A stretch of 64,000 bases of DNA from assembly GCA_013177855.1 (NCBI GenBank), contig JABLYA010000001.1, positions 1,527,573 through 1,591,572 of the forward strand, in the 5' to 3' direction. The stretch is from Ignavibacteria bacterium. GTDB lineage: Bacteria > Bacteroidota > Ignavibacteria > Ch128b. This document shows positions 8,291-51,229 of the stretch, in pieces. The notes beneath the pieces are model-generated. The model made no database searches and was not told the origin of the DNA. It was given only the letters and a program-made list of their open reading frames with translations. The position numbers and the translations under genes are program-made. Numbering within the stretch: the first letter of the stretch is position 1; each line of letters opens with the position of its first letter.

Positions 8291-8297
8291 ATCAAAT

Positions 8298-10634: not shown

Positions 10635-10703
10635 ATAAATTGTCATTCTGAATCTTGATTAAATTAATAACTTCGAACGCTAATAAAAATTTGAGAGGAA
10701 AAA

Positions 10704-31004: not shown

Positions 31005-31009
31005 GACTT

Positions 31010-32526: not shown

Positions 32527-33338
32527 GCTCGACATCAGAAATTAAGAAAGTTACCACGAGAAGAATTCAGGAGATGAAAGATAACGGCGAAAAAATAACT
32601 GCACTTACAGCATATGATTTTTTAATTGCTCGCCTCTGTGATCGTGCTGGGATTGATATTATTCTTGTGGGCGATTCGCTTGGAAATGTTTTTCAAGGAC
32701 ATTTGACAACATTGCCAGTCACTCTCGACGATATGATTTATCATACAAAAGCTGTCCAACGTGGTGTCAAAAGAGCAATGATTGTTGTTGATATGCCCTT
32801 TATGTCTTACCAGACAAACATCGAAGAAGCATTTAGAAATGCTGGAAGAATTATGAAAGAAACTGATGCAGGTGCAGTGAAAATTGAAGGTGGTGAAATT
32901 TTTGCGGAAACAGTTGCAAAGCTTACTGCAAATGGAATTCCAGTAATGGGGCACATTGGATTAACACCACAATCGATTCATCGTTTCGGTGGTTATCAGC
33001 CAAGAGGAAGAGAAAAAGAAGAAGCTCAGCAATTAATTCGTGATGCTAAAGCGCTTGAAGAGGCAGGTGCTTTTGCTATTGTAATTGAAAAAGTACCAGC
33101 AAAACTTGCAAAGAGAATTACTCAATCCGTTAAAATTCCAACAATCGGAATCGGCGCAGGAAAATTTGTTGATGGACAGATACTCGTTGTGTATGATATG
33201 CTTGGTTTGACAGAAGAATTTAATCCTCGATTTGTTAGAAAGTATGCTCATCTCTCTGAAACTATCTTCGATGCATTTAAACATTATATCGAAGATGTTC
33301 GAAGCGGCAATTTCCCAAACGAGAAAGAAAGTTATTAA
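32523..33338 (+). CDS. panB: 3-methyl-2-oxobutanoate hydroxymethyltransferase
   Basis: Typical PanB N-terminus ([37 protein letters not shown]) and K(I)EGG motif. Confidence 0.9.
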
Positions 33339-33653
33339 TAATCACTTCTCCGAGTTTTAATCATTAATCATTTCATAAAAATATTTTTAAACACATCAAA
33401 CAAAATCTTATCTCTCGCATTAAGAATTTTTTTGAGTATGAAAAAGAATTAATAAAAACTTGAATAATGTTTTCTTCTTATTTCAAAAAATCATTCACAT
33501 CATTTTCAACAAGAAAAATTTTTTTATCAACTCACACATCACTCATCAAAAAAAATTTTTAAAATCATTCAAAAACTATTGACAAAAAATTTATAAATCA
33601 TATATTAGCAAGTGAATTAAGTGAATATGTTGAACAAATTGAGAGAGTGATTT

Positions 33654-34736: not shown

Positions 34737-35782
34737 AAGAAGATATTAAAATACTTTTAGTATATAACCAACCAGTTGGTGGAATATTCGAAAGTTATGA
34801 TGGCAGGAGGATAAAATCTGAATCTTCTAACTCAATAGATTTATCTGAAGTTGGTGTTTTAGAAGAGTATGAAGAAATTAAAGAAGCATTAACTGAAAGA
34901 GGATATAAAACAGAATCTTTTAATCTTCTTGATAACATTAGTGAATTATGTTCAAAAGTTGGAGCGGGGAATTATGATGTTGTCTTCAATTTAGTTGAGA
35001 GTGTTGGCGGTGAATCAATTAAAGAGATGTATGTTGCTGGAATTTATGAACTTTATAATATCCCTTACACTGGATGCAGCGCTGTTACTCTTGGTCTTTG
35101 TTTGAATAAACATCGTGCAAAATTGCTAATGAAGGGAGCTGGATTTAATGTCCCGGACTGGAAACTTTATGCGAATCCATCAAAAATAATTTTTGATTCA
35201 AAACCTGAATTTCCAATGATTGTGAAACCATCACAGGAAGATGCAAGTGTTGGAATAAGTGAGCAATCGGTTGTATATAATGAAAATGAATTAAAAGAGC
35301 AGCTTGAATTTATTTATAATACTTTAAAGCAGCCAGTTTTGGTTGAAGAATATATTGAAGGAAGAGAAATTAATTCAGCTATTCTTGGTGATAAAGAAAA
35401 AGTCGCTCTTCCACTTTCTGAAATTAGCTTTGATACTTTGCCAGATGATCTACCAAAGATTGTAACTTATGACGGCAAGTGGATTAAAGATAGTCTTTAC
35501 TGTCAAAATACAATCCCTGTGTGCCCTGCACCGCTTGATGATGAACTTGCAGAACATATAAAGAGAATTGCTCTAGATGTTTCAAATCTTTTCGGTTGCC
35601 GAGATTACTGCCGGGTTGATTTTCGAATTGATAAAAATAATAAACCTTACATTCTTGAAGTAAATCCAAATCCAGATATCTCAAAAGATGCTGGTTTTGC
35701 CAGAGCAGCGAAAGCGTACGGATTAGATTATGATGAACTTTTAATTCGCATAATTGAATTTGCTTTAGAAAGAAGAAAATGA
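34733..35782 (+). CDS. ATP-grasp ligase, D-Ala-D-Ala ligase-like (second of tandem pair)
   Basis: Paralog of the preceding ORF (NIPYTGCSAVTLGLCLNKHRAKLLM vs NIPYTGSDPVTLGICLDKSRTKEIL; MIVKPSQEDASVGI; EEYIEGREINSAILG); 4-bp overlap with upstream gene. Confidence 0.7.
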   Translation: MKEDIKILLVYNQPVGGIFESYDGRRIKSESSNSIDLSEVGVLEEYEEIKEALTERGYKTESFNLLDNISELCSKVGAGNYDVVFNLVESVGGESIKEMYVAGIYELYNIPYTGCSAVTLGLCLNKHRAKLLMKGAGFNVPDWKLYANPSKIIFDSKPEFPMIVKPSQEDASVGISEQSVVYNENELKEQLEFIYNTLKQPVLVEEYIEGREINSAILGDKEKVALPLSEISFDTLPDDLPKIVTYDGKWIKDSLYCQNTIPVCPAPLDDELAEHIKRIALDVSNLFGCRDYCRVDFRIDKNNKPYILEVNPNPDISKDAGFARAAKAYGLDYDELLIRIIEFALERRK

Positions 35783-36264
35783 AAATTCGAGAAATGAAAA
35801 AAGAAGACAGAGAAAAATTAAAAGATATTTTATTTAGAACAGAAAATTTTTCACTCGAAGAGAAAGAAGTAGGATTAGAATTAATTGATATTGCCTTGAA
35901 TAATCCAGAACAAAAAGATTATTTCTTCAAAGTTGCCGAAGAAAATGGAAAAGTTTTAGGATATTACTGCATAGGTCATCGTGCATTAACTGATGGAGTT
36001 TATGATTTGTATTGGATTGTTGTTGATCCTGGAACACGCGGTTCAGGAGTTGGATCACAATTGATAAAAGATGCTGAAGAATTTGTTGCATCAAAAAATG
36101 GAAGATTAATTTTAGCAGAAACATCATCGCGTGATGACTATCAAACTACAAGAAATTTTTATAAGAAAAACAATTACAATGAACTTGCTATCATCAAAGA
36201 CTTTTACAAACAGGGTGATAGCTTAATAATCTTCGGCAAATACTTACAAAATCAAGGGGATTAA
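35779..36264 (+). CDS. GNAT family N-acetyltransferase (candidate beta-lysine acetyltransferase)
   Basis: GNAT acetyl-CoA-binding motif IVVDPGTRGSGVGSQL; 161 aa; translationally coupled between ATP-grasp ligase and lysine 2,3-aminomutase. Confidence 0.65.
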   Translation: MKIREMKKEDREKLKDILFRTENFSLEEKEVGLELIDIALNNPEQKDYFFKVAEENGKVLGYYCIGHRALTDGVYDLYWIVVDPGTRGSGVGSQLIKDAEEFVASKNGRLILAETSSRDDYQTTRNFYKKNNYNELAIIKDFYKQGDSLIIFGKYLQNQGD

Positions 36265-36266
36265 CT

Positions 36267-37406
36267 ATGGAACTCTGGCAAAAAATGATCAGAGACAGCA
36301 TTCATTCAGTCGATCAACTCGTCGAGAAATTTAAACTCGATAGACGAGTGGCTGAAAGACTGGATAAATTCTTCCAGGCTCGCATCAATCCATATTATCT
36401 TAGTTTGATCCGTTATCCTGGCGATCCAATATGGTTGCAATGCGTTCCAGATGAAACAGAACTAAATGATATTGACGCTCCTGAAGATCCTTTGGGTGAA
36501 GATTCAATGAGTCCTGTTCCAAATATAACTCACAGATATCCTGATCGTGTTCTCTTTCTTACAACGAGCCAGTGTGGAATGTACTGTCGATTCTGTACAA
36601 GGAAGAGAAAGGTTGGTGATTCATCCAAAATTTCAATGCGAGGTCTTGAGGCAGCATTCAAATACATTGAAGAGCATAAAGAAATTCGAGATGTTATTCT
36701 TTCTGGTGGCGATCCATTGATGTTAACTGATGCAATGCTTGAAAAAATTCTTCAAAGATTAAGACAAATTCCTCATGTTGAAATAATTCGTCTCGGTACT
36801 CGAATGCCAGTAGTTCTTCCACATCGAATTACCCCGAAACTTGTAAGGATGCTGAAGAAATATCATCCAATTTATGTGAATACTCATTTTAATCATCCCT
36901 GGGAAATTACTCCTGAAAGCAAACGAGCCTGCGAACTTTTAGCCGATGCTGGAATTCCGATTGGTAATCAAACCGTACTTATGAAAGGCGTAAATGATGA
37001 TCCAGAAGTTATTAAAGAACTTTTCAGAAAATTACTTTTAATGAGAGTTAGACCTTATTACTTGTATCAAGCTGATTTGACAAAAGGTGCAAATCATTTC
37101 AGAACACCTGTGAAAGTCGGTCTCGAAATTATGGATAAATTGCGTGGACATACATCGGGACTTGCAGTTCCATATTATGTTATTGATGCACCTGGCGGTG
37201 GTGGAAAAATTCCATTGCTTCCTCAATACGTTTTGTATCAGGATGATGAAAAATTAATTCTTAGAAATTACAAATATGAAACTTTCGTTTATCCAGATGT
37301 TAAGCCTGAAGAATACAGATCCGGTATCCCTGTTCAAACAGAAACTTACGAAAGCAATTCAACTATTTCGTTACCTGTAATTCAATACCAGAACGAAAAC
37401 GAATGA
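36267..37406 (+). CDS. kamA: Lysine 2,3-aminomutase (radical SAM, KamA family)
   Basis: HRYPDRVLFLTTSQCGMYCRFCTRKRKVG (CxxxCxxC radical SAM cluster in KamA context); SGGDPLML motif; 379 aa. Confidence 0.85.
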   Translation: MELWQKMIRDSIHSVDQLVEKFKLDRRVAERLDKFFQARINPYYLSLIRYPGDPIWLQCVPDETELNDIDAPEDPLGEDSMSPVPNITHRYPDRVLFLTTSQCGMYCRFCTRKRKVGDSSKISMRGLEAAFKYIEEHKEIRDVILSGGDPLMLTDAMLEKILQRLRQIPHVEIIRLGTRMPVVLPHRITPKLVRMLKKYHPIYVNTHFNHPWEITPESKRACELLADAGIPIGNQTVLMKGVNDDPEVIKELFRKLLLMRVRPYYLYQADLTKGANHFRTPVKVGLEIMDKLRGHTSGLAVPYYVIDAPGGGGKIPLLPQYVLYQDDEKLILRNYKYETFVYPDVKPEEYRSGIPVQTETYESNSTISLPVIQYQNENE

Positions 37407-37428
37407 TTTAAAATTTTAGTTAATCGAA

Positions 37429-37466
37429 AAGGTTTAGCGGATAAACTCTGCTAAACCTTTTTTAAT
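37429..37466 (+). terminator. Rho-independent terminator after kamA
   Basis: aaggtttagc...gctaaacctt 10-bp stem followed directly by a T-run (tttttaatttt). Confidence 0.65.
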
Positions 37467-37563
37467 TTTAAAAACATATCTCGCTTAAAACGGAAGTTCT
37501 GAATTTTCAATTTGTCTAATTTTATTTCTTAAATTCTTTTGCTTTTTATATTTTTTAATTGCT

Positions 37564-38982
37564 ATGAAAAATCTATTTGAAAACTTCGGCCTTTATCTTG
37601 ATTATTATGAGCTTACAATGGCTCAGGGTTATTTTTTGAGCAATCGACGCAATTTAAAAGCAACCTTCGATTACTTTTTCCGCAAAAATCCTTTTGGTTC
37701 TGGTTATACAGTTTTTGCAGGAGTTTCCGATTTACTTGAGTTATTAAAAATTTTTCGTTTTGGAAGTGAAGCAATTGATTTTTTGAAATCGAAAGGCTTT
37801 AAAGATGAATTTCTCGACTACTTGAAAGAATTTCGTTTTGCTGGAAGTATTTATTCTGCTAGAGAAGGTGAAATTGTTTTTCCTTACGAGCCTTTAATTA
37901 GAGTCGAGGGAAATATTATTGAAACTCAGATTATTGAGTCACTTCTTCTTAATCTAATTAATTTTGAATCATTGATTGCAACAAAAGCAAAAAGAATTCG
38001 ATTTGCGGCAAAAGATAAAATTATATCTGACTTTGGATTAAGAAGAGGTCAGGGACTGGCATCTTTATTTGCAAGTCGAGCTGCGGTAATTGGTGGAGTG
38101 AACAGTACTTCTAATGTTTTAGCAGCATTTAATTATGATTTAATTCCAGCTGGTACTCAAGCTCACTCCTGGATTCAAAGTTTCGAAAATGAACTCGAGG
38201 CTTTTAGAAAGTTTGCCGAGTTTTATCCTGATAATTGTATTCTTCTTGTTGATACATTCGACACACTGCGGAGTGGAATTCCAAATGCGATTAAAGTTGC
38301 AAAGGAGCTTGAGCAAAAGGGTAAAAGATTGAAAGCAATTCGATTAGATAGTGGTGACCTTGCTTACTTCTCAAAGAAAGCAAGAAAAATGTTAGACGAG
38401 GCTGGATTGAATTATGTGAAAATTGTCGCTTCTAATCAGCTCGATGAATATCTAATTAAAAGTCTTGACGAACAAAATGCACCAATTGATTTCTTTGGTG
38501 TTGGGACAAATCTAATTACCGGTCAGAAAGATGCAGCGTTGGATGGTGTTTATAAAATCTGTCAGATTGAAGATAATCCAACAATTAAATTATCTGAAGA
38601 TATTAGCAAAGTAACTTTACCGGGACCAAAAAAGATTTACCGTTATTTTAATGGTGAAGGAAAATTCTATGCTGATTGTATCGCGTTGATTGATGAAGAT
38701 GAAATTGACTTAATGATTCATCCGTTCGATATTTATAAAAAATGTAATTTGAAAGAATTGAAAAGAGAAGAAATTCTGGAACAGGTTGTAAAAAATGGTG
38801 ATGTAATTGTTCCCGAAAAATCTGTAAATGAGATTGCATCTTATTCTGAATTTCGTTTCTCGCAACTGCCTGATGAACATAAGAGATTTGAGTATCCCCA
38901 TATCTATAAAGTTGGAATAACTCCGAAACTTTTAGAGCTTCGAGATAATTTAATCAGAAAAAATAAGGAGGGTAAATTATGA
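37564..38982 (+). CDS. pncB: Nicotinate phosphoribosyltransferase
   Basis: About 470 aa NAPRTase-type protein (N-terminal LDYYELTMAQGYF); immediately followed by and overlapping pncA. Confidence 0.75.
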   Translation: MKNLFENFGLYLDYYELTMAQGYFLSNRRNLKATFDYFFRKNPFGSGYTVFAGVSDLLELLKIFRFGSEAIDFLKSKGFKDEFLDYLKEFRFAGSIYSAREGEIVFPYEPLIRVEGNIIETQIIESLLLNLINFESLIATKAKRIRFAAKDKIISDFGLRRGQGLASLFASRAAVIGGVNSTSNVLAAFNYDLIPAGTQAHSWIQSFENELEAFRKFAEFYPDNCILLVDTFDTLRSGIPNAIKVAKELEQKGKRLKAIRLDSGDLAYFSKKARKMLDEAGLNYVKIVASNQLDEYLIKSLDEQNAPIDFFGVGTNLITGQKDAALDGVYKICQIEDNPTIKLSEDISKVTLPGPKKIYRYFNGEGKFYADCIALIDEDEIDLMIHPFDIYKKCNLKELKREEILEQVVKNGDVIVPEKSVNEIASYSEFRFSQLPDEHKRFEYPHIYKVGITPKLLELRDNLIRKNKEGKL

Positions 38983-39521
38983 AAGCGTTATTTATTGTTG
39001 ACCTTCAAAATGATTTTTGCCCGTGGGGAGCTTTACCAACTCCAAAAGGCGATGTAATTATTCCTGTATTGAACAAAATAATGGATAAATTCGATCTTGT
39101 TCTGGCTTCCAAGGATTGGCATCCGGAAGATTCAATTCATTTTCAAAAATGGCCTAAACATTGTGTTCAGAACACGAAAGGTGCAGATTTCCCCGATGGA
39201 TTAAATACTGAAAAAATTAAGAAAGTATTTCTAAAAGGAACTGGCAATAAAGATGATGGTTACTCTGCCTTCGAAGCGACAAACGAAAATCTTGCTGAAT
39301 TTCTGAGAAAGAATAATGTCGATGAGTTATATGTAACTGGTTTAACAGCTGAGTATTGTGTTAAACAGACGGTACTGGATTCATTGAAAAATGGATTTAA
39401 GACTTTTGTTATTAAGGATGGTGTTGAAGGAATCTATCAGAACGAGGGCGATGTTGAAAATGCTTTCAAAGAAATGGAACAAGCTGGAGCAATTCTCATT
39501 ACTTCTAACGATTTGAAATAG
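38979..39521 (+). CDS. pncA: Nicotinamidase/pyrazinamidase (isochorismatase family)
   Basis: LFIVDLQNDFCPWGALP N-terminal motif, catalytic Cys region (LYVTGLTAEYCV). Confidence 0.8.
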   Translation: MKALFIVDLQNDFCPWGALPTPKGDVIIPVLNKIMDKFDLVLASKDWHPEDSIHFQKWPKHCVQNTKGADFPDGLNTEKIKKVFLKGTGNKDDGYSAFEATNENLAEFLRKNNVDELYVTGLTAEYCVKQTVLDSLKNGFKTFVIKDGVEGIYQNEGDVENAFKEMEQAGAILITSNDLK

Positions 39522-39581
39522 ATTAATCACACTCCGACTACTTTATAAAAATCTTTTAATTAAACTGATTTTATTTTTTTT

Positions 39582-40555
39582 GTCAGGCTGAGCTTGTCGA
39601 AGCCTGACGACAATTAAACTTAAAGCATTCTTTAAGGTCATACTTCGTCAAGTCTCAGGATGACCTCAAATTTTCGCTGTCATACTGAGTTCATCGAAGT
39701 ATGACGGCGATTATTGAGAACATTTGAGTTAATATCATCCTTCGTCAAGGCTCAGGTTAACAATTCCTTAAAAAAATCATAATGGGTCGCTCCTATGGAG
39801 CTTAAATATTTTTTGTTGGTTTTGCTCTCTACTACAAATAGGTCGCTTCTACAAAGCTTTTAAAGAATAAAATTTAGTAGGTAAGAAAAATAAAAGTCGC
39901 GTAGTGATGAACGATTTGTAGCAGAATAATTACTGAGCCCGAAACAAATTGAAGTTGCATAGCAACGACCTCTTTGTAGAGAAAATTATGAACAACTAAA
40001 AAGCTAAAGTCGCGTAGCGACGACCTATCGTAGATATAATTATAAACCGCATAAAGAATTAAATCCAAAATGGAAGAAATTATTATAGAGAAAAACAATC
40101 ACAAACAAAAAAATAAAAAAATAAAAACCCCGCAGGGGTTTAATGTGAATAGCCCCCAATCGCATTGGGGGGTAAGTGAGAACAAAAAAACAAAGAACCC
40201 CAAAGGGGTTCAATTATAACAGAAATTGTTTTAAACGATCCTAAAAATTCAATTGCAAATCAAACATTAAAAATATTTTGAACCTCTCATTTAACCCCTT
40301 CAGGGTTGGAATTATCTTTTGGCGATATTTACCGAGTGCAACTCGGGGCTAATCATATTCAACTCCTTCGGAGTTGGTGAAAATCAACCAGAATAAGATA
40401 TTGATTACAATTTCATTAACTGATAAATCCAGAATGGATGAAATTATTATAGAAAGAAGAAGTGCGCATAAGAAAAAATCCTGAAGGTATGACATTCCGT
40501 TCGTCGAGGCTCAGGATTACAATTCTCTGTCAGGCTGAGCTTGTCAAAGCCTGAC
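39582..40555. repeat. Repeat-rich module A: conserved-loop hairpins + GTCGC/TGTAG-type repeats + tetraloop hairpin array
   Basis: Contains gtcaggctgagcttgtcgaagcctgac (39582-39608), gtcatactgagttcatcgaagtatgac (39679-39705), degenerate units, GTCGC..TGTAG modules (39780-40040), core 40061-40456 and a terminal hairpin 40529-40555. Confidence 0.75.
40061..40456. repeat. Core element copy A: array of six GC-stem short-loop hairpins bounded by about 35-bp direct repeats
   Basis: Bounding repeats aaatccaaaatggaagaaattattatagagaaaaa (40061-40095) and aaatccagaatggatgaaattattatagaaag (40425-40456); hairpins at 40126-40140, 40153-40172, 40195-40211, 40293-40309, 40332-40346, 40360-40376. Confidence 0.75.
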
Positions 40556-40748
40556 GACATTAAAACTATAAACATTTTTTAGGATTACATTTTTTAATTC
40601 TGAACGATACTGAAGAAAGGTAATTGTCAGAAAAAAGATGAGTTTAAAAAATAAAAGTAAGAGCTGCCCAGTTTTTTTGTTGATGCTCATTTAAGATAGA
40701 GATATTAAATTTTTTCTCTGGACAGCTCTAATTGAAGAGCAATAATTT

Positions 40749-43700
40749 TTATTTCAAATAGACCATTTTCTTTATTGATTTATAATCTCCAGAAATTAAT
40801 TGGTAGAAATATATTCCACTTGGAATTTTGTACTGAGCAGCATCAAAAATAAAGCTATAGATACCTGCTTCTCTTTCTTCATCAATCAATGTAGAGATTT
40901 CTCTGCCAATCACATCGAACAATTTTAACTGAACTCTGGATTTTTCTTTTAATGCAAACTTAATCTTTGTAACAGGATTAAACGGATTTGGATAATTTTG
41001 ATAAAGTTCAGTTCTATCTGGAATTGTAACAGGTGAAAGTTTTAACAGCTTTATGTTTTTATCCTCGATAACTAATTCATCACCGGGCGTAAGTGTTTGG
41101 CTAATCTCTTGATTAGGCTCGCTTTCAACTTTGACTTTTAATTTTGTTGATTTAATTCTAATTGGATATTCTCCCGAGTTTATGATCAAATAATTTTCCT
41201 TATTAACATTTTCAACAAATCGATTTGAAGAAAATCGAACATCAAAAATTTGAGCTGGTGGAGTTGGTGGCAATTCAAACAAATCATTTTCCAAATTGTC
41301 ACTCAGATAAAGTTTTACGCTTCGATCTTGATTATCTGTAATTATTAATTCACCAGCGTCACTTAATATTTTTTCAAGTGTTGAGAATTTAGACTTTACT
41401 TTCCCCATATTTTGATTAAAAATAATTTTCCCATCTTGAGAAACTTTTATCCAGTAACCTTTGCCTTTTTGAATTGTGCTGGCAACAAAATATCCATTCT
41501 GGTAACCGAAGAAATAAGATTGCAAAATGTCAGGCGGATTCGTTGTAATCGAATTCACTGAAACATCATTTTCAAATCCACCAATTAAATTCCATCCAGC
41601 TTTTACATTAGCAAAAGGATTTTCAATTGGTAAACCGCAAACCGTAACTTGAGTTGAGTTTGGATATTTCAACCAATAACCTTTTCCATTTGAAAGAGTA
41701 TCAACTGTGTAGTAACCGATTGATTGACTAAATGCAAACGCTGATGATGTTGCATTTGGAAAGATATCAGTCTTTGACATATTTGTTCTTGCAACAGGAA
41801 CAGAAACAATATTCCATCCTGAATTTAAAGAAAAGTTAACGCACAACTCAGTTCTAATCGAAAAAGTATTGTCGCTAATATCGAAGACATTTGGATTTTC
41901 AAGAGAAGAAATTTTAATCAAACATTGTTCTGAAGTAGAACCCGTTACTAACCATTCATAAGAACCAGATTGAGCAGCAATGTTTGTTGCAATTAGATTC
42001 CATGTGCTTCCATTATTAGTCGAAATTTCTATTTTCACATTGTTTACATTCGTACTTGTCCACTCAATTAATTTATGTTGATTCACATACCAGATTTCAC
42101 CGCCATTTGGTTTTGTAACTTGAATTGAACTTGCTTGAACAACTACACCACCAGAGAGCAGCGCAACATTACCAAGATTTGACCCAACCAAAATTTCTTT
42201 TGAACCATTATTATCAAGATCAGGGACAACAGCAACTTCTCTTGCCTGAGTATTTCCACCAAATGAATAAAGAGCCAGTTCATTACCATTGCTGCCATTT
42301 ACAATTAGAGCTCCTTGATTTTGTACTGCAAACACAACATCATCGGAGCCGTCTCCATTTAAGTCTGGAATTATATCAACACCCATAGTATTGCCAGTTG
42401 ATTTGTACCATAGAGTATTTCCATTTGCACCATCAACACAAACAGCGCCGCCTGCTAAAATTGAAATTACAACTTCATCAACTCCATCTCCGTTTACATC
42501 TCTTAAGATTTTCATTTGAGTTGGTGCACCGCCGCCGGTTGAAAATGTCCACAGAGGTAAACCAGTTGTTCCTTTCAATCGATAAACTGGGCCCCAGAAA
42601 GCTCCAGCAATTACATCAGGTTTTTGACCTGGAACTGGAAATACTAAAACTTCTTTTGCACCGCCAGTATTCGAACCAACTTGATATGCCCAGATTAAAT
42701 TTCCATTTGCTCCGCTTAATGCCTGAAATTGATAAACTGGTTCACCAACTGTTGCAATGACATCTGGAATTCCATCATTGTTTATATCTGGAATTGCGGT
42801 AACTCCATGAGTAAATCCACCGACAAATCTTTGCCAGATAATTTGTCCATTTGGTCCATTGAAAAGATAAACCGATCTTCTTCCAGCTACTCCGCCTGAT
42901 TGAGTTGCACTTGCAGCTGCTATTACATCTGGAATACCATCGTTATTAAAATCGGTTGTTGCATCGACACCAGTTATATCACCTAAAGCAAAACTATCGG
43001 GATGATCAGTTCCAAATTTCCATAACATTTGACCTGTTTTGCCATTTAAAGCATAAACGGACTCATTTCCACCACCTGTTCCGATTACTACATCATTAAA
43101 GCCATCGCCATTTAAGTCACTTGCGATTGAAAGCGCTTTTTGATAAGAATAATCTCCGGTTGAGCCAATAGAACCTGCACTTGAATTTGAAATGTAAGTA
43201 TTAAAAGACCACAGAGTATCATTCCCGCCTGAAGAATTTCCATTTAATGCTGCAGTCCAATAGTTTTCAGTGCAGACAATTACATCAGATTTGCCATCAC
43301 CGGTTATATCGTTGATAGCTCTAATTCCTTTTATGGTTCTGTATGTGTTTGAAATTGGATGATTGGGCATTGTATGAGTCCATAAAGGTTGAGCAAGTGA
43401 AAGATTCTGAATTTCGCCTGTGCCTGTTAAAAAAATCTTTGCTTCTGGAGCATTTGTAGAATTGTTGATGATTCTTAAAGTATCAGAAATTAATCCTGAA
43501 GATCTTGGATTGAACCACACTCTTACATATTTAAAACTATTAGCAGGTAAATTTAAAGGAAAGATATCTGGTTCAAGATAAAAATCTGGAATTGATGTAT
43601 TCCATGAAAAAATGTTAATTGGTTGATTGCTTAAGTTTTCAATTTTCATCCACCAGAAATTTGTGCTTCCAACTCTTTTGGTTCCAAAATTATAAGACGG

Positions 43701-44885
43701 CGGAACACTAATTACTCCCTGACCATAAATTCCATTTCCAACCAATCTTATCACCTGCGCAGGTCGTGATAAATCATTGTGATAAATATAGAGATGAGAA
43801 CTATCCGAACCGTATGCGATTGGCGAAAAGAAGATTTGAAAGCTCAGATTACCATTTGGTTGAATGATTGCTGGTGTTGTTAGATTAGTTGTAAATCTTG
43901 ATGAGTAGAAAAATCTTAGGCTGTCAATTACGAGATTTGCAGTTCCATTATTAACAATTGTTGCGGTAATCTGTCCTGAATTTCCAAGAACAACATTACC
44001 AAAATCAAAAAATTTTGTTGGGATGTTAATAGATGGACTTCCACCGCCAATTACATATTTAAAGATTTGTCTGCCCGATGATGCACCAACAGGTTCAGCA
44101 AGGAGGTAAAGGTAATTTCCATCCCAAGCAAGTCCTCTTGGATTTTGTCGTTGTCCGGGTGTTTCAGGAAGCGGGAATGAAAAAAGAGTATCTTTTGTAA
44201 ATCTGTTTACAGCATAAATTCTTTCCGGGTCTCCATCAAATCCATCCATTACATAAAATATTGTATCTCCTTTGACTGCAATACCCTGAGGTTGTAAACC
44301 AAAAACTGGAATTGTATCTGTAACCTGACTTGTGTTTATATCAATCCGATAAAGTGCAGCACTTGAATTTGGATAGTAAACTGAAGCCCATATTTGTCCG
44401 TCATAAGCAAGTCCGCCAAGATAAACGCTTGAAGCAGTAGGCCAATTCAATGAATCAAGTATCTGACCATTTTTAGCAATTCTAATAATTCTACATCTTG
44501 CTGTGTATCTTTGAACAAAGTAAAAAACATTTCCATCTGTTGTTAAACCCTGTGATGAGTTCACATGTGAACTGCTAAAGATTACACTATCTCGAATTAT
44601 ACCAAGCGTATCAACTGCATAGAGTTTTGCCCCTAAATTTCCAGTCGAATATGAACTTGAAACCCACAAAAGTCCATCTCGAATTGTTAAACCATATCCA
44701 TAGTTAAAGAAATTGTCGTTGGGCAAATTGATTACCTGGACAAGTGTTTGCCCGTTTAAAATTTTAGTGAGCAACAAATAGATTATTAAAGTTATAATGA
44801 ATGATATTATGAAACTCTTTTTTGGTTTTTGTGGGTTTGTAGTTTTTCTATTAGAAAAAAGCGGCAGGAAATTATCTGATTTCAT
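40749..44885 (-). CDS. Very large secreted FG-GAP/VCBS-repeat beta-propeller protein with T9SS C-terminal domain
   Basis: FG-GAP-like repeats (DLNGDGFNDVVIGTGGG, DINNDGIPDVIATVG, DVNGDGVDEVVISI, DLNGDGSDDVVFAV, DLDNNGSKEILVGS); CTD LYQNYPNPFNPVTKIKFAL...KLFDVIGREI; 1378 aa. Confidence 0.6.
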   Translation of the reverse strand: MKSDNFLPLFSNRKTTNPQKPKKSFIISFIITLIIYLLLTKILNGQTLVQVINLPNDNFFNYGYGLTIRDGLLWVSSSYSTGNLGAKLYAVDTLGIIRDSVIFSSSHVNSSQGLTTDGNVFYFVQRYTARCRIIRIAKNGQILDSLNWPTASSVYLGGLAYDGQIWASVYYPNSSAALYRIDINTSQVTDTIPVFGLQPQGIAVKGDTIFYVMDGFDGDPERIYAVNRFTKDTLFSFPLPETPGQRQNPRGLAWDGNYLYLLAEPVGASSGRQIFKYVIGGGSPSINIPTKFFDFGNVVLGNSGQITATIVNNGTANLVIDSLRFFYSSRFTTNLTTPAIIQPNGNLSFQIFFSPIAYGSDSSHLYIYHNDLSRPAQVIRLVGNGIYGQGVISVPPSYNFGTKRVGSTNFWWMKIENLSNQPINIFSWNTSIPDFYLEPDIFPLNLPANSFKYVRVWFNPRSSGLISDTLRIINNSTNAPEAKIFLTGTGEIQNLSLAQPLWTHTMPNHPISNTYRTIKGIRAINDITGDGKSDVIVCTENYWTAALNGNSSGGNDTLWSFNTYISNSSAGSIGSTGDYSYQKALSIASDLNGDGFNDVVIGTGGGNESVYALNGKTGQMLWKFGTDHPDSFALGDITGVDATTDFNNDGIPDVIAAASATQSGGVAGRRSVYLFNGPNGQIIWQRFVGGFTHGVTAIPDINNDGIPDVIATVGEPVYQFQALSGANGNLIWAYQVGSNTGGAKEVLVFPVPGQKPDVIAGAFWGPVYRLKGTTGLPLWTFSTGGGAPTQMKILRDVNGDGVDEVVISILAGGAVCVDGANGNTLWYKSTGNTMGVDIIPDLNGDGSDDVVFAVQNQGALIVNGSNGNELALYSFGGNTQAREVAVVPDLDNNGSKEILVGSNLGNVALLSGGVVVQASSIQVTKPNGGEIWYVNQHKLIEWTSTNVNNVKIEISTNNGSTWNLIATNIAAQSGSYEWLVTGSTSEQCLIKISSLENPNVFDISDNTFSIRTELCVNFSLNSGWNIVSVPVARTNMSKTDIFPNATSSAFAFSQSIGYYTVDTLSNGKGYWLKYPNSTQVTVCGLPIENPFANVKAGWNLIGGFENDVSVNSITTNPPDILQSYFFGYQNGYFVASTIQKGKGYWIKVSQDGKIIFNQNMGKVKSKFSTLEKILSDAGELIITDNQDRSVKLYLSDNLENDLFELPPTPPAQIFDVRFSSNRFVENVNKENYLIINSGEYPIRIKSTKLKVKVESEPNQEISQTLTPGDELVIEDKNIKLLKLSPVTIPDRTELYQNYPNPFNPVTKIKFALKEKSRVQLKLFDVIGREISTLIDEEREAGIYSFIFDAAQYKIPSGIYFYQLISGDYKSIKKMVYLK

Positions 44886-45137
44886 AAGTCACCTCAATTA
44901 AATGTTATGACCTGGTTCAAATTAATTAATTATTTTTTTAAAATCCTGGAAAAGATTTGAATGAAAATGAGGGTATTTGATTTTCTTTCTCTATAAATCT
45001 TATAAGGGAAGATTATTGTATTAACAGGCTCGAGGTAATTTGAATTTAAATGAAAGTTCTTTATTAAAAGTCTTAATGGATTTGAATTTCAAATAAAAGC
45101 TGACTACTTTTGAATTGTAAACATAAGGGGTTCAAAA

Positions 45138-45317
45138 ATGAAGAATAAAGTTATTTTAATCCTTCTCATTGTCGCCGCTCTAAGTATTGTAATAGGACTA
45201 ATTGGAAAATTTTCCGGCTCTTTTATTGTTTTTGCAAATGCAACTTGGCATATGTTCGCTCAAACCTGTTTATTGGCTGCCATTGCATTTGGGGTCGGTA
45301 AACTCCTGGAGAAATAA
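45138..45317 (+). CDS. Small predicted membrane protein (59 aa, two hydrophobic helices), not in the supplied ORF track
   Basis: ATG at 45138 preceded by aagggg 8 nt upstream; MKNKVILILLIVAALSIVIGLIGKFSGSFIVFANATWHMFAQTCLLAAIAFGVGKLLEK; TAA stop at 45315-45317. Confidence 0.35.
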   Translation: MKNKVILILLIVAALSIVIGLIGKFSGSFIVFANATWHMFAQTCLLAAIAFGVGKLLEK

Positions 45318-46279
45318 AATTTAATTTGTCTAAAAATTTTTCAGATTAATTCTGCTTAAAAAAGTATTAATTCTTCTCTTTCATTAAAATCATTATTAAA
45401 CACAACTCTTGAAAGTTGCATTGGGTGAAGAGCTTTAAATTCGGGGAATTGTAAATCATTAATTTCAAATTGAACCAGGCTTCTGTGCAGCTGGCATCTT
45501 CAAATGTAAAAGTAAATCTATCATAATCATCTGGTTGAGCTGGTGTCCTTTTACAGGTTAAGGTTGTTAGAGCTGTGGTAAACAAAAAATGAAAAATGAA
45601 AATTTTTTTAAAAGACTAAAAATAAATCCTCCTGTGATATAGGAGAAAAATAAGAATTAATAAAATGAAATCCTTTGCTTGTGATTTTGTAAACAAGAAT
45701 TTTAAAGCTGTTTAATATATGCGGGGGGCGGACATTAGAGGACTTACACTGATTATTGTATTTGAGATTTTAATAATCATCTTTTTCGCTAAAAGGCTTA
45801 ATGGGTATTTACTAATCTAAAAACATTTTTCAATTATGTTTTTATGAGATTTATCTATAACAATACTCAGATTAAAAAATATTGGGATATGAATATTTAT
45901 TGAATGAAATTCATAGAATGTAAATGTTATACAAATAGTTGTTCTTTCTAAAAGAGATTTATTTGTTTCCGGGAAAATTGCTTCGCTTAACTTACAATAG
46001 ATTTTATTTTTGAAAATTTTCCGTTAAAAAATTATTGACCTTAAATGATGATGCACATAAAAAATAGTATTCTTAGCTTATAGAAATTTATCTAAGATGG
46101 AAAGTACAGACACAGAACTGTTCAGTTGTTATTTTTCATTTATCTGTTATTTTTTCGGTATGAGTTAAATTATACTCTTTAATATCAAAATTCCATTTAC
46201 ACAAATTTTAAAGACTCTGAGGTTTGCTTAATTTCATTGGACAAATGTAAGATTAAAGTTAAAATTTTTAATCAATTTC

Positions 46280-48454
46280 TTATTTCATCAAAATAAATTT
46301 TTTAGTTTGAACCAAAGAATTGTTTTTCAATTGATAAATATAAACTCCTGTACTTAGATTATATTGATCGGCATTGAATTCAATTTCGTATTCCCCGATT
46401 TGTTTATGTTCATTCACAAGAGTTACAATTTCCTGGCCGAGTAGGTTGTAGATTCTTAAGCTTGTAAATCCAGAGATAGGGATTGAGAATTTAATTTTTG
46501 TTTTTGAATTAAACGGATTAGGATAGTTTTGAAAGAGAATAAATTTTTTTTCAATGTAATTATTATCATAAACATTGGTTGGTAGATTAACGCCACTTAT
46601 ACCATTTTCATTAAAAATTGCGAGACCCCAGTCTTGGCCATAGTCACTGGCAATCCATTTATTATTGAATTTATCAATTTTTATATCCACAATGCTTCGG
46701 TTAGTTGTTTGATCAAATAAAGTAAAATTTGTCCCATCATATTTCAATAATCCATCATCAGTTCCTATCCAGAGATTATTAAATTTATCAACGGTAATAA
46801 CATTAATATAATTATTAGTGAAAGGTGCGTTATTTGAGTTAAATACAATAAATGTTGAGTCATTTATCCATTTTAATAATCCCATTCTTCTTGTACCAAG
46901 CCAGCGTGTACCATATAAATCTTTAACAAAATAAGTAATTTCTTGACTTGGCATTTTAGTATTAGTTGTATCATAGATTTTCCATTCGTTATTGTATAGT
47001 AAAACCAGCCCTTTAAATGTACAAATCCAAATCGAATCGCCGTAAGGAATTACCAACATACCATTATTTGAGGGTAAAGGAGAATTAGATGTGTTAAAAA
47101 AATAATAATTATTTAAGCTATCAACTTTCAAAACTCCACTTCCTACGGGTGCAATTATCCATTTATTTCTTGACTTATCAATGTTCATTCTTGGATATTT
47201 GACAGCAATTAAAGGAGTAGAGTATGAACTAAAAGAATAACCATCAAAACTGATTAACCCTTTTCCAACCATATATAACCAGATAATGTTGTTACTATCA
47301 ATTGCAGATATAAAATGATTTGGATTAACATTAAATGTGTCTGAGATTTTCCAATAATACCAATTAAATCCATCATACTTTATAAGAGCATTATAAGTAT
47401 TATATAAACTGAATGATAACCATACATTTTCGTTCTTGTCGATAATAATGTTGTATACATCCTGTCGTAAATATTGCGAGGTATCAAATCTAATGAACAA
47501 CCATTGATCTGAATCTTTACTTAGATTTCTTGAAATAAACAGAGGTATCTGAAATGGTTTAAAATTATTGTCACCAGTTAAATTAATTGATTGCTTTTGG
47601 ATTTCAGGATTTATCGTGATGGATTTTATGGGCGAAGGATTACTTGACATAAGATTTGTATTTATTGTCCAGACGCGATATTCAACAGTAATTGAATTAT
47701 TTCCCCCATTCCAGGTAATATCATAATCAATGAAATGATTTTCGTTTGTTTGATTTAATTTAAACCAGTTACTGTTATTTTTTCTTCTTTCTATTAAAAA
47801 TCCTGTATAAAATTCTTTACATTCCCAAAAAAGAAAAGGGTGGTTATCATAATTATTAATATTAAGCTCAATAATTTGTGGCGGTTCAAAATATTTTGTG
47901 ACGGGTAAGCCTTGATTTTTTATCTCCCAAACTTTCAATAATGAACCTGCCTTAAATGTGTACCAATTAGTTTTATCGACACTATAATTTAATGTATTTG
48001 TACCAAAATCAAATTTGATAAAAATATCAGGATTATAGCTGTTTGATACACTACCACTCCATCTACAATCCCTTGTGTCCAGATAAAAATAAAGATTGTT
48101 ATTTTTTGAATTAATTATTTTATAAAATCCATATGTGATTACAGGGGAATAACCACTTCTATAAGAAAACCAGCAGTTCCATTTCGATGGATCATTATTA
48201 CTGATCCCAGTAGTTTCTAATTCACTGTTAATTAAACTCGAGTCGTTAGTAATTGAAAAAATAGTGTCAGATGGATTAATCCAGGTAATTCTTTCACTTT
48301 CAAGAAAATATTTAACCTTTTCGTTTTCATCAACACCAAATGTACCTACAAACAAAACGCCTTCAGTAATTTTTTCTTGAGATAATAAATTAAAATAGGA
48401 TATGAATAATAAAAGGAGTGTGAAAAATTTTTTCATATTATATCTCCTAAACAA
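46280..48454 (-). CDS. Secreted beta-propeller (two-component-regulator-propeller-like repeats) protein with T9SS C-terminal domain
   Basis: Repeats of the type NNLWIGTDDGLLKYDGTNFTLF, NKWIASDYG, RWLGTRRMGLLKW; CTD ILFQNYPNPFNSKTKIKFSIP...RIYNLLGQEI; real start may be the internal Met of MKKFFTLLLLF. Confidence 0.55.
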   Translation of the reverse strand: MFRRYNMKKFFTLLLLFISYFNLLSQEKITEGVLFVGTFGVDENEKVKYFLESERITWINPSDTIFSITNDSSLINSELETTGISNNDPSKWNCWFSYRSGYSPVITYGFYKIINSKNNNLYFYLDTRDCRWSGSVSNSYNPDIFIKFDFGTNTLNYSVDKTNWYTFKAGSLLKVWEIKNQGLPVTKYFEPPQIIELNINNYDNHPFLFWECKEFYTGFLIERRKNNSNWFKLNQTNENHFIDYDITWNGGNNSITVEYRVWTINTNLMSSNPSPIKSITINPEIQKQSINLTGDNNFKPFQIPLFISRNLSKDSDQWLFIRFDTSQYLRQDVYNIIIDKNENVWLSFSLYNTYNALIKYDGFNWYYWKISDTFNVNPNHFISAIDSNNIIWLYMVGKGLISFDGYSFSSYSTPLIAVKYPRMNIDKSRNKWIIAPVGSGVLKVDSLNNYYFFNTSNSPLPSNNGMLVIPYGDSIWICTFKGLVLLYNNEWKIYDTTNTKMPSQEITYFVKDLYGTRWLGTRRMGLLKWINDSTFIVFNSNNAPFTNNYINVITVDKFNNLWIGTDDGLLKYDGTNFTLFDQTTNRSIVDIKIDKFNNKWIASDYGQDWGLAIFNENGISGVNLPTNVYDNNYIEKKFILFQNYPNPFNSKTKIKFSIPISGFTSLRIYNLLGQEIVTLVNEHKQIGEYEIEFNADQYNLSTGVYIYQLKNNSLVQTKKFILMK

Positions 48455-48683
48455 AATCCAAACAAATATATTTTATTTTTTTTTAAAAAACAAATAAGCG
48501 TTAAGTATATATGAAAGCGGCTGATATATTTAAAAATGCTTAAATATGTTTTTTGTATTGGTCTTATTGTTACAGCCAATGTTTCTGAAACAAATTAAAT
48601 ATTTTTATTGTCAACAATTTTTAAAAACGTTTGTTTGAATATTTGACAAGCTCTGCCTTAGATTGAGCTTTTAGAAATTAATT

Positions 48684-49740
48684 GCTGTCATACTTCGATG
48701 AACTAAGTACGACAAAGAAGGGAATGTCATCCTGAGCTTGTCGAAGGGAATGTCATCCTGAGCCCCGACGAAGGATGACACAAAAGAATGTTTTAAATTT
48801 CATTGCTGTCAGGATTCGACTGGCTCAGCCTGACAAAGAATTGGCATCCTGAGGTCAGTCGAAGGATGACCTGAAAGAATATTTTATGTTTGATCGCTGT
48901 AATACTTCGATGAACTCAGTATGACAGCGGAATTGTCAACCTTAGCCCCGACGAATATAATGTCATCCCTTCAGGATTTTTTTATGGGTGCTTGTTTTTT
49001 TCTATAATAATTTCATCCATTCTGGATTTAATTTTCAATTAATCAAAAATAAATCAATATCTTTTTCTGATTGATTTACATCAACTCCAAAGGAGTTGAA
49101 TATGATTAACCCCGAGTTGCACTCGGGGAAATATTGTCAAAAGATGTTTCCAACCCTGAAGGGGTTGAATGTGAATTTCAAAATTTTTTGATGTCTGTTC
49201 TGCAATTGAATTTTTAAGATCGTTTAGAACAAATTCTGTTATAATTGAACCCCTTTGGGGTTCTGTGGGTTTTTGTTCTCATTTACCCCCAATCCGATTG
49301 GGGGCTATTCACATTAAACCCCTGCGGGGTTTTTATATTTTTTGTTTTTTATGTGTAAAGGTTTTTTCTATAATAATTTCATCCATTCTGGATTTAATTT
49401 TTATGCGGCACATAATTATTTCTACAGGGAGGTCGTTGCTGCGCAACTTTAATTTTTTTTCGGGCTTAGTAATTTTTTGAATACAAAGAGTCTATCGCAA
49501 CGCGATTACACATTTTTAGTTTTATCATTTTTATTCTGAAAATAGAACAACGCTATTTTATTTCTTTCAAGTTTGTTTTAATTATTTCATTTTTTTATGG
49601 TTTACTTTGAAATAAAAAATCATTTAGATAGATCTTCTTTCTATTGAACTTAAAAAATCTTCCTTGGAAGCGACCTATTTGTAGAGAAAGAACCAAACAA
49701 AAAATATCAAAGCTCTATCGGAGCGACCTATTAACATTAG
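48684..49740. repeat. Repeat-rich module B, inverted relative to module A
   Basis: Conserved-loop hairpins (e.g. gtcatcctgagccccgacgaaggatgac 48752-48779), core 48997-49402 that is the reverse complement of 40061-40456 by eye (hairpin order and loops inverted), then GTCGC/TGTAG-type modules to about 49740. Confidence 0.75.
48997..49402. repeat. Core element copy B (reverse-complement orientation of copy A)
   Basis: Bounding repeats ttttctataataatttcatccattctggatttaatttt at both ends; hairpins 49081-49099, 49109-49127, 49151-49167, 49247-49263, 49286-49304, 49317-49331 are reverse complements of those in copy A, in reversed order. Confidence 0.75.
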
Positions 49741-49907
49741 CTGTGAAAAACTGAATTTTAAAATATTTTTATTATCAATGGTGAATTAATAAACATTCTC
49801 AATTTTCTGAAAATTTGGAGAGAAATTTACGATCAATCAGATTTTATCAAGTATAAAAATTCTGTCTATGATTAAATCTTTTGATTGAAAAGGGGAGTGC
49901 TTTTTAA

Positions 49908-49963
49908 TTTTAATAAAAAAACAAAAAATCCTTTCTCCACTCTTTAGAAGCAGAGAAAGGATA
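49908..49963 (-). terminator. Candidate rho-independent terminator downstream of icd
   Basis: Minus-strand hairpin atcctttctc...gagaaaggat followed by a U-rich run (plus-strand A-run 49908-49927). Confidence 0.55.
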
Positions 49964-49978
49964 AATTAAATCAACAAA

Positions 49979-51229
49979 TTACATATGATCAACTATGTTC
50001 TTACCGAATTCAGAACATTTAATTTCAGTTGCGCCTTCCATCAATCGGGCAAAATCATAAGTTACTCGTTTGCTTGCAATTGCACCGCTGATTCCTTTTA
50101 TGATTAAATCAGCAGCTTCCGTCCAGCCCATATATCTAAACATCATTTCTCCAGATAAAATTACAGACGAAGGATTTACTTTATCCAGTCCTGCATATTT
50201 TGGAGCGGTTCCGTGAGTTGCTTCAAAGATTGCGTGACCCGATTCGTAATTGATATTTGCACCTGGTGCAATTCCAATTCCTCCGACCTGAGCGGCTAAT
50301 GCATCGGAAATATAATCACCATTTAAGTTCATCGTTGCAATCACATCGTATTCGGCAGGGCGAGTTAAAATTTGTTGTAAGAAGTTATCGGCAATTGCAT
50401 CTTTAATTAAGATTTTTCCTTCAGGAACATTTCCCTGACATTCATCCCAAGTTACAACTTGATCACGAAATTCTCTTGTTGCAAGAGCATAACCCCAGTT
50501 TCTAAATGCACCTTCAGTAAATTTCATAATGTTGCCTTTGTGAACGAGTGTAACGCTTTTTCGATTGTTTTTAATTGCGTAATTAATTGCAGCACGAACA
50601 AGTCTTTCTGTCCCTTCTCGTGAGATTGGTTTAATTCCAATTCCACTTGTATTGGGGAAACGAATCTTTTTTACGCCCATTTCGTTTTGTAGAAATTCAA
50701 TGACTTTTTTTGCTTCAGGTGATTCTGCTTCCCATTCAATTCCTGCGTAAATATCTTCTGTGTTCTCTCTGAAAATTACCATATCAACAAGTTCAGGATG
50801 TTTGACAGGCGAAGGGACGCCAGGGAAATATTGAACTGGTCTCAAGCAGACATAAAGATCAAGTAACTGTCTTAATGCAACATTAATTGATCTAATTCCA
50901 CCGCCAACAGGAGTTGTCATTGGACCTTTAATTGCAATTAAATATTCTTTAATGGCTTCAAGAGTTTCGTCGGGAAGCCAGGTGTTTGGTCCATAGACTT
51001 CGTTTGATTTTTCACCAGCATAAACTTCCATCCAGACAATTTTTCTTTTTCCACCGTAAGCTTTTTCAACTGCTTTATCAAATACATATTGGGCTGCTCG
51101 CCAAATGTCGGGACCGGTTCCATCTCCTTCAATGAAAGGGATAATTGGTTTATCAGGCACATTTAGTTTTCCGTCCTGAATTGTAATTTTTTCACCTTCA
51201 GTGGGCACTTTGATTTTGTTGTACTTCAT
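49979..51229 (-). CDS. icd: NADP-dependent isocitrate dehydrogenase
   Basis: Typical prokaryotic Icd N-terminus ([39 protein letters not shown]) and isocitrate/isopropylmalate dehydrogenase motifs; 416 aa. Confidence 0.9.

Follow-up and report, generated by a model that had tools for sequence, protein, structure and literature searches.

Inverted clusters of short palindromic repeats around a type IX secretion cargo segment in an Ignavibacteria genome, and the probably passive inversion of that segment

The window analyzed here (the whole 64-kb stretch of Ignavibacteria DNA) contains two hairpin-repeat modules, A and B, which bracket a segment of about 8 kb with cargo genes of the type IX secretion system (T9SS). 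The modules are probably clusters of repetitive extragenic palindromic (REP)-type palindromes, resembling bacterial interspersed mosaic elements (BIMEs), which accumulated in two 3' intergenic regions; the inversion of the segment between them would be a passive by-product. The clusters are structurally unstable: the number of units varies, a 366-nt core bounded by direct repeats (DR) is present or absent, an insertion sequence (IS) of the IS1182 family is found in the loops of the units named H, and the cargo segment is inverted in one lineage. In the mechanism proposed, four kinds of units (H, G, DR and D) would have piled up 3' of the isochorismatase gene and 3' of the ICDH gene, and the segment would have been inverted by illegitimate or short-homology recombination, or by IS-associated recombination, at the palindromes. 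The hairpins may be kept as terminators or other 3'-end structures, or as recognition sites of a spreading enzyme, as conserved stems and terminator-like features would suggest.

The modules were aligned using blastn (39480-40780 against 48420-50020) and, globally, MAFFT, and hairpin units were placed by repeat finding, sequence reading and regular-expression (regex) patterns. A DR pattern was scanned against GTDB genomes, a set which did not include the window's species, and a two-hairpin D pattern was scanned against metagenomes, where at least 120 loci matched. The related loci compared were those of GCA_029907405.1 (labeled L139/L143), GCA_037481975.1 (L003/L144), a JGI contig (L157) and three sister populations (L136/L137, L151-L156 and L158/L159), the latter with ~78-82% nucleotide identity to the window.

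The segment is flanked by housekeeping genes: NAPRTase and isochorismatase to its left, ICDH and the Rnf complex to its right. The isochorismatase and 1378-aa genes converge on module A, and module B lies 3' of ICDH. The initial annotation had placed T9SS cargo genes between the modules, which is borne out by a Por_Secre_tail domain in both proteins and an FG-GAP/PQQ propeller in the 1378-aa protein. A scan for tRNA and tmRNA genes as a possible integration target found none. The features between the modules are as follows.

40749-44885, minus strand: gene of the 1378-aa T9SS cargo protein (FG-GAP/PQQ-type propeller, ASH/Ig, choice-of-anchor D, Por_Secre_tail)
45138-45317, plus strand: 59-aa small membrane-like open reading frame (ORF), called in L003, L137, L151-L156 and L159 and adjoining the 1378-aa gene in all relatives
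46280-48454, minus strand: 724-aa T9SS cargo ORF with Por_Secre_tail, called as 718 aa from 48436 in public assemblies
45341-49947, no strand: lineage-specific 4.6 kb between ICDH and the 59-aa gene (940-nt spacer, 724-aa gene, module B)

The lookup returned no exact record for the 724-aa version, the called gene being the 718-aa form.

At least four families of units, all of them short palindromic hairpins, make up the modules. H units have an 8-11 bp GTCAnnCT stem (GTCAGGCT, GTCATACT or GTCATCCT) and a conserved 11-nt loop (GAGCTTGTCGA or GAGTTCATCGA); successive loops alternate in orientation, giving tandem dimers with a length of 97 nt in A and of 91 nt in B (repeat families D1, D3, D17). 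In G units a GTYGC-NNN-GCRAC hairpin precedes GACCTnTTTGTAG and a tail of the AAATTAT type. The DR unit (TAAATCCAGAATGGATGAAATTATTATAGAA) consists of a TCCAGAATGGA hairpin and a GAAATTATTATAGA tail and stands as a direct repeat on both sides of each core, the two copies being identical in module B (40/40) and 89% identical in module A. The D unit is a double hairpin, AACCCCnnnGGGGTT-GAATGTGAATAG-CCCC..GGGG, in which a linker (T/G)AAT(G/A)TGA(A/T)TAG precedes the second hairpin, which begins with CCCC; inside the core two forward D units face one reverse D unit. The elements of the two modules are located as follows.

39576-39769, no strand: H array of module A, four units in two 97-nt tandem dimers (repeat families D1, D10, D17; regex; sequence)
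39582-39608 (plus), 39637-39665 (minus), 39679-39705 (plus), 39734-39762 (minus): H units of the A array, with alternating loops
39780-39860, minus strand: two reversed G units (hairpin and GACCT..TTTGTAG tail; sequence, regex; arm I13 matches 49681-49738)
39896-40046, plus strand: three G units with AAATTAT-type tails (39896-39921, 39954-39979, 40009-40033; sequence, regex)
39998-40539, plus strand: block A (blastn, alignment)
40060-40094, plus strand: DR copy 1 of module A (TAAATCCAAAATGGAAGAAATTATTATAGAGAAAA; repeat family D16)
40095-40423: core interior A with facing D units (40126-40172, plus; 40196-40222, plus, half unit; 40332-40375, minus) and a hairpin at 40293-40307
40424-40458, plus strand: DR copy 2 of module A (repeat family D16)
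40473-40590: right end of A, with a small DR-like hairpin (40478-40490) and H units at 40493-40521 (minus) and 40529-40555 (plus)
48679-48955, no strand: H array of module B with a 91-nt period (repeat families D2, D3, D5)
about 48684-48716, 48726-48752, 48756-48783, 48808-48834, 48845-48872, 48899-48925, 48930-48955: H units of the B array
48915-49458, minus strand: block B, the inverted counterpart of A (blastn, alignment)
48996-49035 and 49362-49401, minus strand: DR copies of module B, 40 nt each (repeat family D12)
49036-49361, no strand: core interior B, absent together with one DR from GCA_029907405.1
49411-49738, minus strand: G units of B (49422-49447, ~49470-49505, 49667-49738) with an AT-rich spacer between (arms I10, I13, I15)

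The initial annotation had described the modules as sharing sub-elements in reverse-complement order, and the alignment agrees: 39998-40539 and 49458-48915 form one colinear minus-strand alignment of 550 columns with 84.7% identity and 14 gaps (blastn, E = 1.3e-169), not short scattered matches. The MAFFT global alignment gave 463/549 identical positions (84.3%), with a longest exact run of 42 nt; for the cores (40061-40456 and 48997-49402) the initial annotation had estimated roughly 85% by eye. Repeat finding recovers the same match as inverted arms I1, I2, I5, I7 and I9, and the correspondence noted between the GTCGC/TGTAG modules is reproduced by arms I22 and I10. A block runs from a G unit through DR, core and DR to a small hairpin and an H unit, and each core has a copy of the direct repeat (35-40 nt) at either end (module A, 40060-40094 and 40424-40458; module B, 48996-49035 and 49362-49401). 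The far-left hairpins of A (39576-39769) match B (48679-48932) at 74-85% and are not colinear with the block; in A this H array flanks the core on its outer side, whereas in B it stands between core and segment. The 64-kb window contains the 550-nt block in these two places only, and no further copy was found among the at least 120 metagenome loci matched by the D pattern. A protein search with a 71-aa spurious ORF across block B gave no homologue. The pair of blocks is probably an old duplication and not a homogenized recombination pair.

The sister populations indicate which parts of the locus are old. All three have the Rnf, ICDH, 59-aa and 1378-aa genes in the order and orientation of the window, and they lack the 724-aa gene, module A and module B. 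The 1378-aa and 59-aa genes are therefore ancestral neighbors of ICDH, the orientation in the window is the ancestral one, and only 45341-49947 is species-specific, where the alignment of L136/L137 skips from window position 49948 to 45340. Because the two genes are ancestral to the locus, the 8-kb segment is not a composite-transposon insertion, and the proposal in the initial annotation that the modules are relics of a composite or MITE-like insertion (miniature inverted-repeat transposable element, MITE) fails on the same gene order in populations without any module. Its other proposal, a hotspot of intergenic repeat accumulation, holds. The spacer between ICDH and the 59-aa gene is free of repeats in two sister populations (222 nt in L137, 220 nt in L159), and in the third (L151-L156; L151 11252-12320) it contains an H-dimer of ~128 nt whose copy number differs by sample, from one (L155) to several (L154, L151); this spacer is a hypervariable repeat hotspot. 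The number of units also varies between strains of the window's species. Each lineage has different DNA 3' of the 1378-aa gene (OTCase in one, a CofH-type radical SAM gene in others, isochorismatase here), and module A thus sits at a recurrent synteny breakpoint. In more distant relatives ICDH is next to cpn10 and mutS. Of the relatives sampled, only this species has the 724-aa gene, whose closest homologues elsewhere are 76% and 58% identical.

Conspecific genomes show both orientations of the segment. GCA_037481975.1 (99.2-99.7% identical) and L157 (96.8% identical) have the orientation of the window with both features present; in L157 the H array of module B is 131 nt shorter and the 724-aa gene carries a 641-nt deletion (L157 12580-14097). 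In GCA_029907405.1, whose flanks are 96.5-98.5% identical, the same flanking genes enclose the whole cargo segment in inverted orientation. Segment inversion, which the initial annotation had considered possible for long inverted repeats, has thus occurred in a conspecific metagenome-assembled genome (MAG), the junction lying in the short H units and not in the 550-nt blocks. The contig L143 corresponds to the window as follows.

L143 1-9739, plus: window 29904-39641, 96.5% identity
L143 9731-17475, reverse complement: window 48706-40962, 97.0% identity
L143 17476-20956: without window counterpart, ~3.5 kb of replaced DNA
L143 20957-21081, plus: window 48911-49035
L143 21024-22157, plus: window 49345-50478
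window 39633-39641, no strand: A-side inversion breakpoint, in the 5' stem of H unit 2 (L143 junction alignment)
window 48701-48714, no strand: B-side inversion breakpoint (48706), within an H unit of module B

At the left junction the first H unit of A and its spacer are joined to the loop and 3' half of the terminal H unit of B. At the right junction homology to the 1378-aa gene ends at 40962, right after the conserved motif YQNYPNPFNPVTKI of the T9SS C-terminal domain (CTD); the protein of the inverted strain (1376 aa) continues with a different CTD (L143 17476-17682), past which lie two small ORFs and then the IS1182-family element. The same motif is a dispersed repeat of 40-70 nt among cargo genes (18468-18743, 12429-12701, 46280-46555, 8024-8290), and CTDs may be exchanged by recombination at it. 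Module B of this strain retains a single DR without core, and no A block is present. A simple reciprocal exchange between the 550-nt blocks was rejected, since neither junction contains a hybrid block. The route to this arrangement, which allows no unique reconstruction, probably comprised at least two events: the segment was inverted, and DNA between the CTD motif and the IS was replaced.

Other contigs end or change at the same repeats. The short-read contigs L004-L006, L140 and L142 all end at the second DR of B (49362-49401). The metagenome contig L002 (JGI 3300038964) is ~78% identical to the window through NAPRTase (compared over 37561-39954), 100% identical from ~38975-38979 (the start of isochorismatase) to 39954, and unrelated thereafter; either two co-occurring species were merged in a chimeric assembly or the identical part was imported recently by recombination, and in view of the switch from 78% to 100% identity it was set aside as evidence of an alternative junction at 39955. 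It has two extra T9SS cargo genes (S8 peptidase, Kelch), and a Kelch-type cargo gene is also found beside NAPRTase in L144. In a sister species whose ICDH protein is 95% identical, all four contigs (L132-L135, positions 1-165) stop at a GTCATGCTGAACTTGTTTCAGCATC hairpin ~150 nt upstream of ICDH; this is another hairpin-repeat family that breaks assemblies.

Beyond the modules, the units are dispersed to different extents. H units were found in this species, in its sister species (two intergenic sites in L151) and in L009 only. Two further hairpin sites in the window are relevant here.

10555-10658, no strand: third H-unit site in the window, directly after the GH3 stop codon (blastn, regex, Pfam)
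49928-49962, minus strand: intrinsic-terminator-like hairpin of ICDH (15-bp stem and T run), kept in sister species and not part of the repeats

The GH3 gene belongs to a polysaccharide-utilization-like cluster at 74-14383, with a TonB-dependent receptor, a PorV-like protein, GH16-malectin, GH3, GH5-CBM6 with a T9SS tail, and CotH. The peptides that the H loop encodes here (..FDKLR.., ..LSLSK.., ..LRQAQ..) often turn up among the spurious short ORFs annotated in bacterial genomes, which would suggest that the loop motif extends far beyond this lineage. A full-text literature search on the H-encoded peptide strings yielded no relevant paper. A 25-mer of DR occurs singly, among other hairpin-plus-tail units, in three MAGs labeled Bacteroidetes, Ignavibacteriales and Chitinophagales. 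In two Ignavibacteria-like MAGs (L009 5990-6080, L010 900-960) a histidine-rich leader peptide (..HTHHHLHHHP..) followed by a hairpin stands upstream of hisG; it resembles a his attenuator and adjoins single DR-type units. D units form tandem arrays with a period of 65-70 nt in many of the at least 120 matching metagenome loci, beside unrelated genes (methyltransferase, OYE oxidoreductase, glycogen phosphorylase, CHAT-TPR protein). A CRISPR reading of these arrays was ruled out, as the entire period repeats, the 'spacer' included. Arrays of D double hairpins (AACCCCnnnGGGGTT GAATGTGAATAG CCnnnGGTGAAACCnnnGG) are present in L012, L026, L043, L046, L052, L057, L073, L084, L095, L117 and others, several of them from one sample series (Ga0190343, Ga0190344, Ga0190345, Ga0190315). 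In L046 (2555-2775), and also in L012, L026, L045 and L117, a short element with inverted ends CTTAACTTAATGGCATTGAG interrupts the hairpin 2 loop of D arrays, with GGTGAAACC(T) repeated on both sides of it; this may be a small MITE which targets D units.

Several observations weigh against the repeat-cluster reading or narrow it. All material consists of MAGs or metagenome contigs. Dispersal is seen for the H, DR and D units, the 550-nt block being known from its two copies in the window. No RAYT (REP-associated tyrosine transposase) or other dedicated transposase was identified in a search confined to the window proteins. The exchange at the left junction lies inside T(A/T)AG(G/T)TCAT, shares only ~7-9 nt and does not keep the register of the units; since the number of units differs between strains, an ancestor with another array could conceivably have undergone the exchange in register. 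The inverted strain lacks both 550-nt blocks. The IS1182 copy in L143 is flanked by GTGTAC and TGAACT, which share no target duplication. A causal role of the repeats in the inversion, as opposed to the IS, is put forward conditionally because the second junction is blurred by 3.5 kb of replaced DNA and the IS1182 copy.

The core may also be a functional RNA or transcription element (a bidirectional terminator, an insulator or a structured RNA array) which was duplicated under selection for that function at the two ends of the cargo segment; this is possible, if doubtful, and would be compatible with the modules being repeat clusters. Between blocks A and B the stem positions of ten small hairpins are conserved (106/110 identical versus 357/439 elsewhere; Fisher p = 2.7e-5), with one compensatory pair (40011/40019), and among 21 distinct units D hairpin 2 shows compensatory changes (CG, AU, GC, UA) at two pairs. 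Changes on both sides were counted in 16 cells versus 4.6 expected, although the units had been pre-filtered for pairing and palindromes acting as DNA would be expected to covary alike. Core interior A (40095-40423) folds with a minimum free energy of -95.9 kcal/mol (z = -5.8). Terminator-like hairpins number 14 (4.9 +/- 2.3 expected), mostly in the cores, at D hairpin 1 and G hairpins, and D hairpin 1 with its T run resembles a terminator on the strand facing transcripts which leave the segment, on both sides. Against a dedicated function, Rfam gave no gathering-level match over the window and only sub-threshold, chance-level matches in 39400-50100. The match of the Acido-Lenti-1 RNA motif (RF01687) to G units (18.9 bits at 40008-40033; gathering score 37) covers the hairpin only and does not amount to membership, and in L043 (3377-3470, 6853-6898) the same motif reaches 22-29 bits, also below the gathering score of 37. 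The 1378-aa gene does without the core in sister species, the core is dispensable in GCA_029907405.1, and tandem or dispersed occurrence beside unrelated genes fits selfish or neutral repeats.

That IS1182 itself made the inversion, through two inverted copies or a rearrangement at IS ends, and that the clusters matter only as an H-loop target, appears rather unlikely. The element in L143 (19299-20956) encodes a 477-aa transposase (NCBIfam 385.9 bits versus a cutoff of 270), has 16-bp terminal inverted repeats GAGACTGTGTCGCAAT and lies at the right junction, exactly in an H loop, as follows.

48908-48911, no strand: IS1182 join, inside the loop of the 48899-48925 H unit; the last base of the IS inverted repeat is L143 20956

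Three other assemblies, the Logan contigs L146/L147/L148 from other samples, begin (positions 1-13) with this IS end, which there abuts the loop of the 48684-48716 H unit at window position 48701, 5 nt from the left breakpoint. Between the two IS-H junctions there is an offset of 3 nt, which a TGA target duplication at a single, fixed position of the loop would produce, and these two sites are suggestive of an IS1182 element which targets REP loops. The unlike flanks of the copy in L143 would also suit a rearrangement by the IS. The left junction in L143 nevertheless carries no IS copy, and the target preference is drawn from two IS-flank sites. By our own derivation, replicative inversion predicts matching inverted target duplications; these are missing from the flanks, and a single-step replicative IS inversion was rejected for GCA_029907405.1.

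Seen as part of the repeat clusters, the 366-nt core could tentatively be an undescribed non-autonomous mobile element built of D units, which inserts into a DR unit with duplication of ~35-40 nt, and H, G, DR and D could together represent a new REP/BIME system of Ignavibacteria; we consider this unlikely. The single DR without core in module B of GCA_029907405.1 is explained equally well by a deletion between the 40-nt direct repeats as by core insertion. If the proposal were true, the unit system would be mobilized by some enzyme, and the H loops would also be a landing pad for IS1182.

It is quite improbable that the arrangement of GCA_029907405.1 is an assembly artefact at repeats and that the modules are repeat clusters and nothing more. 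The sequences being MAGs, short-read contigs breaking at these repeats, and a right junction running through a multi-copy IS would all agree with an artefact. The left junction, on the other hand, shares too few nucleotides for a k-mer misjoin, its sequence is unlike both parental arrays, the contig extends over 483 kb without Ns, and the neighborhood lookup reports two further places with the same gene neighborhood.

A programmed invertible element, with the modules as arms of a phase-variation switch for T9SS cargo operated by a site-specific recombinase, is very improbable, even though inverted repeats bracket a segment for surface or secreted proteins and both orientations occur in nature. 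Neither a recombinase nor a transposase turned up among the window proteins that were scanned, and none of the genes called in the flanking loci is a recombinase gene. The two arms have diverged by 15%, with no exact run above the 42 nt given, and the junction is imprecise, with deletions, replaced DNA and the loss of both blocks. No promoter is switched, as the cargo genes keep their own upstream regions (L143 retains 48706 to the start codon of the 718-aa gene), and the window source, GCA_037481975.1 and L157 all have one orientation. Because a recombinase was not found among the window proteins, the arms have diverged, the junctions are imprecise and the upstream regions move with the genes, the inversion is probably a strain-level structural polymorphism and not a programmed switch. 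A composite transposon or MITE-bounded insertion with the modules as terminal inverted repeats is extremely unlikely, since, although ~550-nt inverted blocks bracket the segment and the GC content of 45-50 kb is slightly below that of the flanks, three module-free sister populations have the 1378-aa and 59-aa genes in synteny with ICDH and Rnf and in the same orientation as these, the lineage-specific piece 45341-49947 is bounded by one module and not two, and neither a transposase in the segment nor a target duplication outside the blocks was found.

The preferred reading, BIME-like clusters of REP-type palindromes, rests on traits shared with known REPs. Short imperfect palindromes recur in the modules, and H units recur also at 10555-10658 and in relatives. 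They are extragenic and 3' of ORFs, with A between convergent genes, B after ICDH and the third site after the GH3 stop codon, and alternating units stand in tandem with linkers (97-nt and 91-nt dimers here, ~128-nt dimers in L151-L156). The natural variants show palindromic intergenic clusters shaping the neighborhood of T9SS cargo genes in uncultured Ignavibacteria, and one locus combines expansion and contraction of arrays, gain or loss of the 366-nt core, IS insertion in hairpin loops, CTD exchange and an 8-kb inversion. The H and D families are outside Rfam and annotation pipelines and break short-read assemblies. To our knowledge, REP/BIME-like biology has not previously been described in this phylum, to which the present locus extends it.

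In common with the REPs and BIMEs of Enterobacteria and Pseudomonas, the units have variable but complementary stems, alternate in tandem with linkers, lie in 3' intergenic DNA where the neighboring genes converge or run in the same direction, vary in copy number between strains, and are substrates for rearrangement and IS insertion (PMC3733652, PMC1525189, PMC3333891). They differ in belonging to another phylum (Ignavibacteria) with unrelated unit sequences, in H units whose 11-nt loop is conserved and which lack an unpaired GTAG head, and in the presence of four families in one cluster of ~1 kb, including the 366-nt core with direct repeats of 35-40 nt, with no RAYT in the window proteins. 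Di Nocera et al. 2013 distinguished GTAG- and CGTC-tagged REP superfamilies, described head-to-head dimers and large clusters of dimers in tandem with flanking DNA, and reported REPs preferentially 3' of ORFs and, in Chlorobi and Bacteroidetes, CGTC repeats that lack a dedicated transposase (PMC3733652). CGTC-tagged REPs have an unpaired CGTC/TGTC tag, an 8-9 bp stem starting with AT, a 4-5 nt loop and a CCA tail (PMC3733652). H units begin with (C/T)GTCAT..., which resembles the tag and the AT-starting stem, but their GTCA is paired, their loop is 10-12 nt long and conserved, and their tail is GACAATTAAAC-like without CCA, so that they fall outside the definition.

The likeness to the REPIN-RAYT system (REPIN, REP doublets forming hairpins), in which REP-BIME units are linked to a Y1 transposase (Ton-Hoang et al., PMC3333891), lies in inverted hairpin doublets which could fold into a larger hairpin and persist vertically in a lineage. 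The present units form tandem arrays and not dispersed doublets, no RAYT was found among the window ORFs scanned, and no GTAG head abuts a stem, the GTAG of G units being ~9 nt 3' of the stem and D hairpin 2 being preceded by ATAG. REPs are known IS targets (Tobes and Pareja, PMC1525189), and the IS1182 copies share with the REP-targeting elements IS1397, ISKpn1, ISPpu9 and ISPpu10 a fixed position in the palindrome loop, here in two different H units; in contrast to the known examples, which are of the IS3 and IS110 families, the present one is a DDE element of the IS1182 family, seen at two sites. Invertons and shufflons differ in that no invertase was found in the window proteins, and the locus has no precise crossover site and no promoter switching. 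As in repeat-mediated inversions at rRNA operons, IS copies or REPs, a segment with inverted repeats occurs in both orientations among strains, the difference from classical homologous inversions being that the junction lies outside the long arms. Repeat- and IS-associated inversions are textbook phenomena; the locus reveals no new mechanism and is an ordinary case of repeat-associated genome rearrangement.

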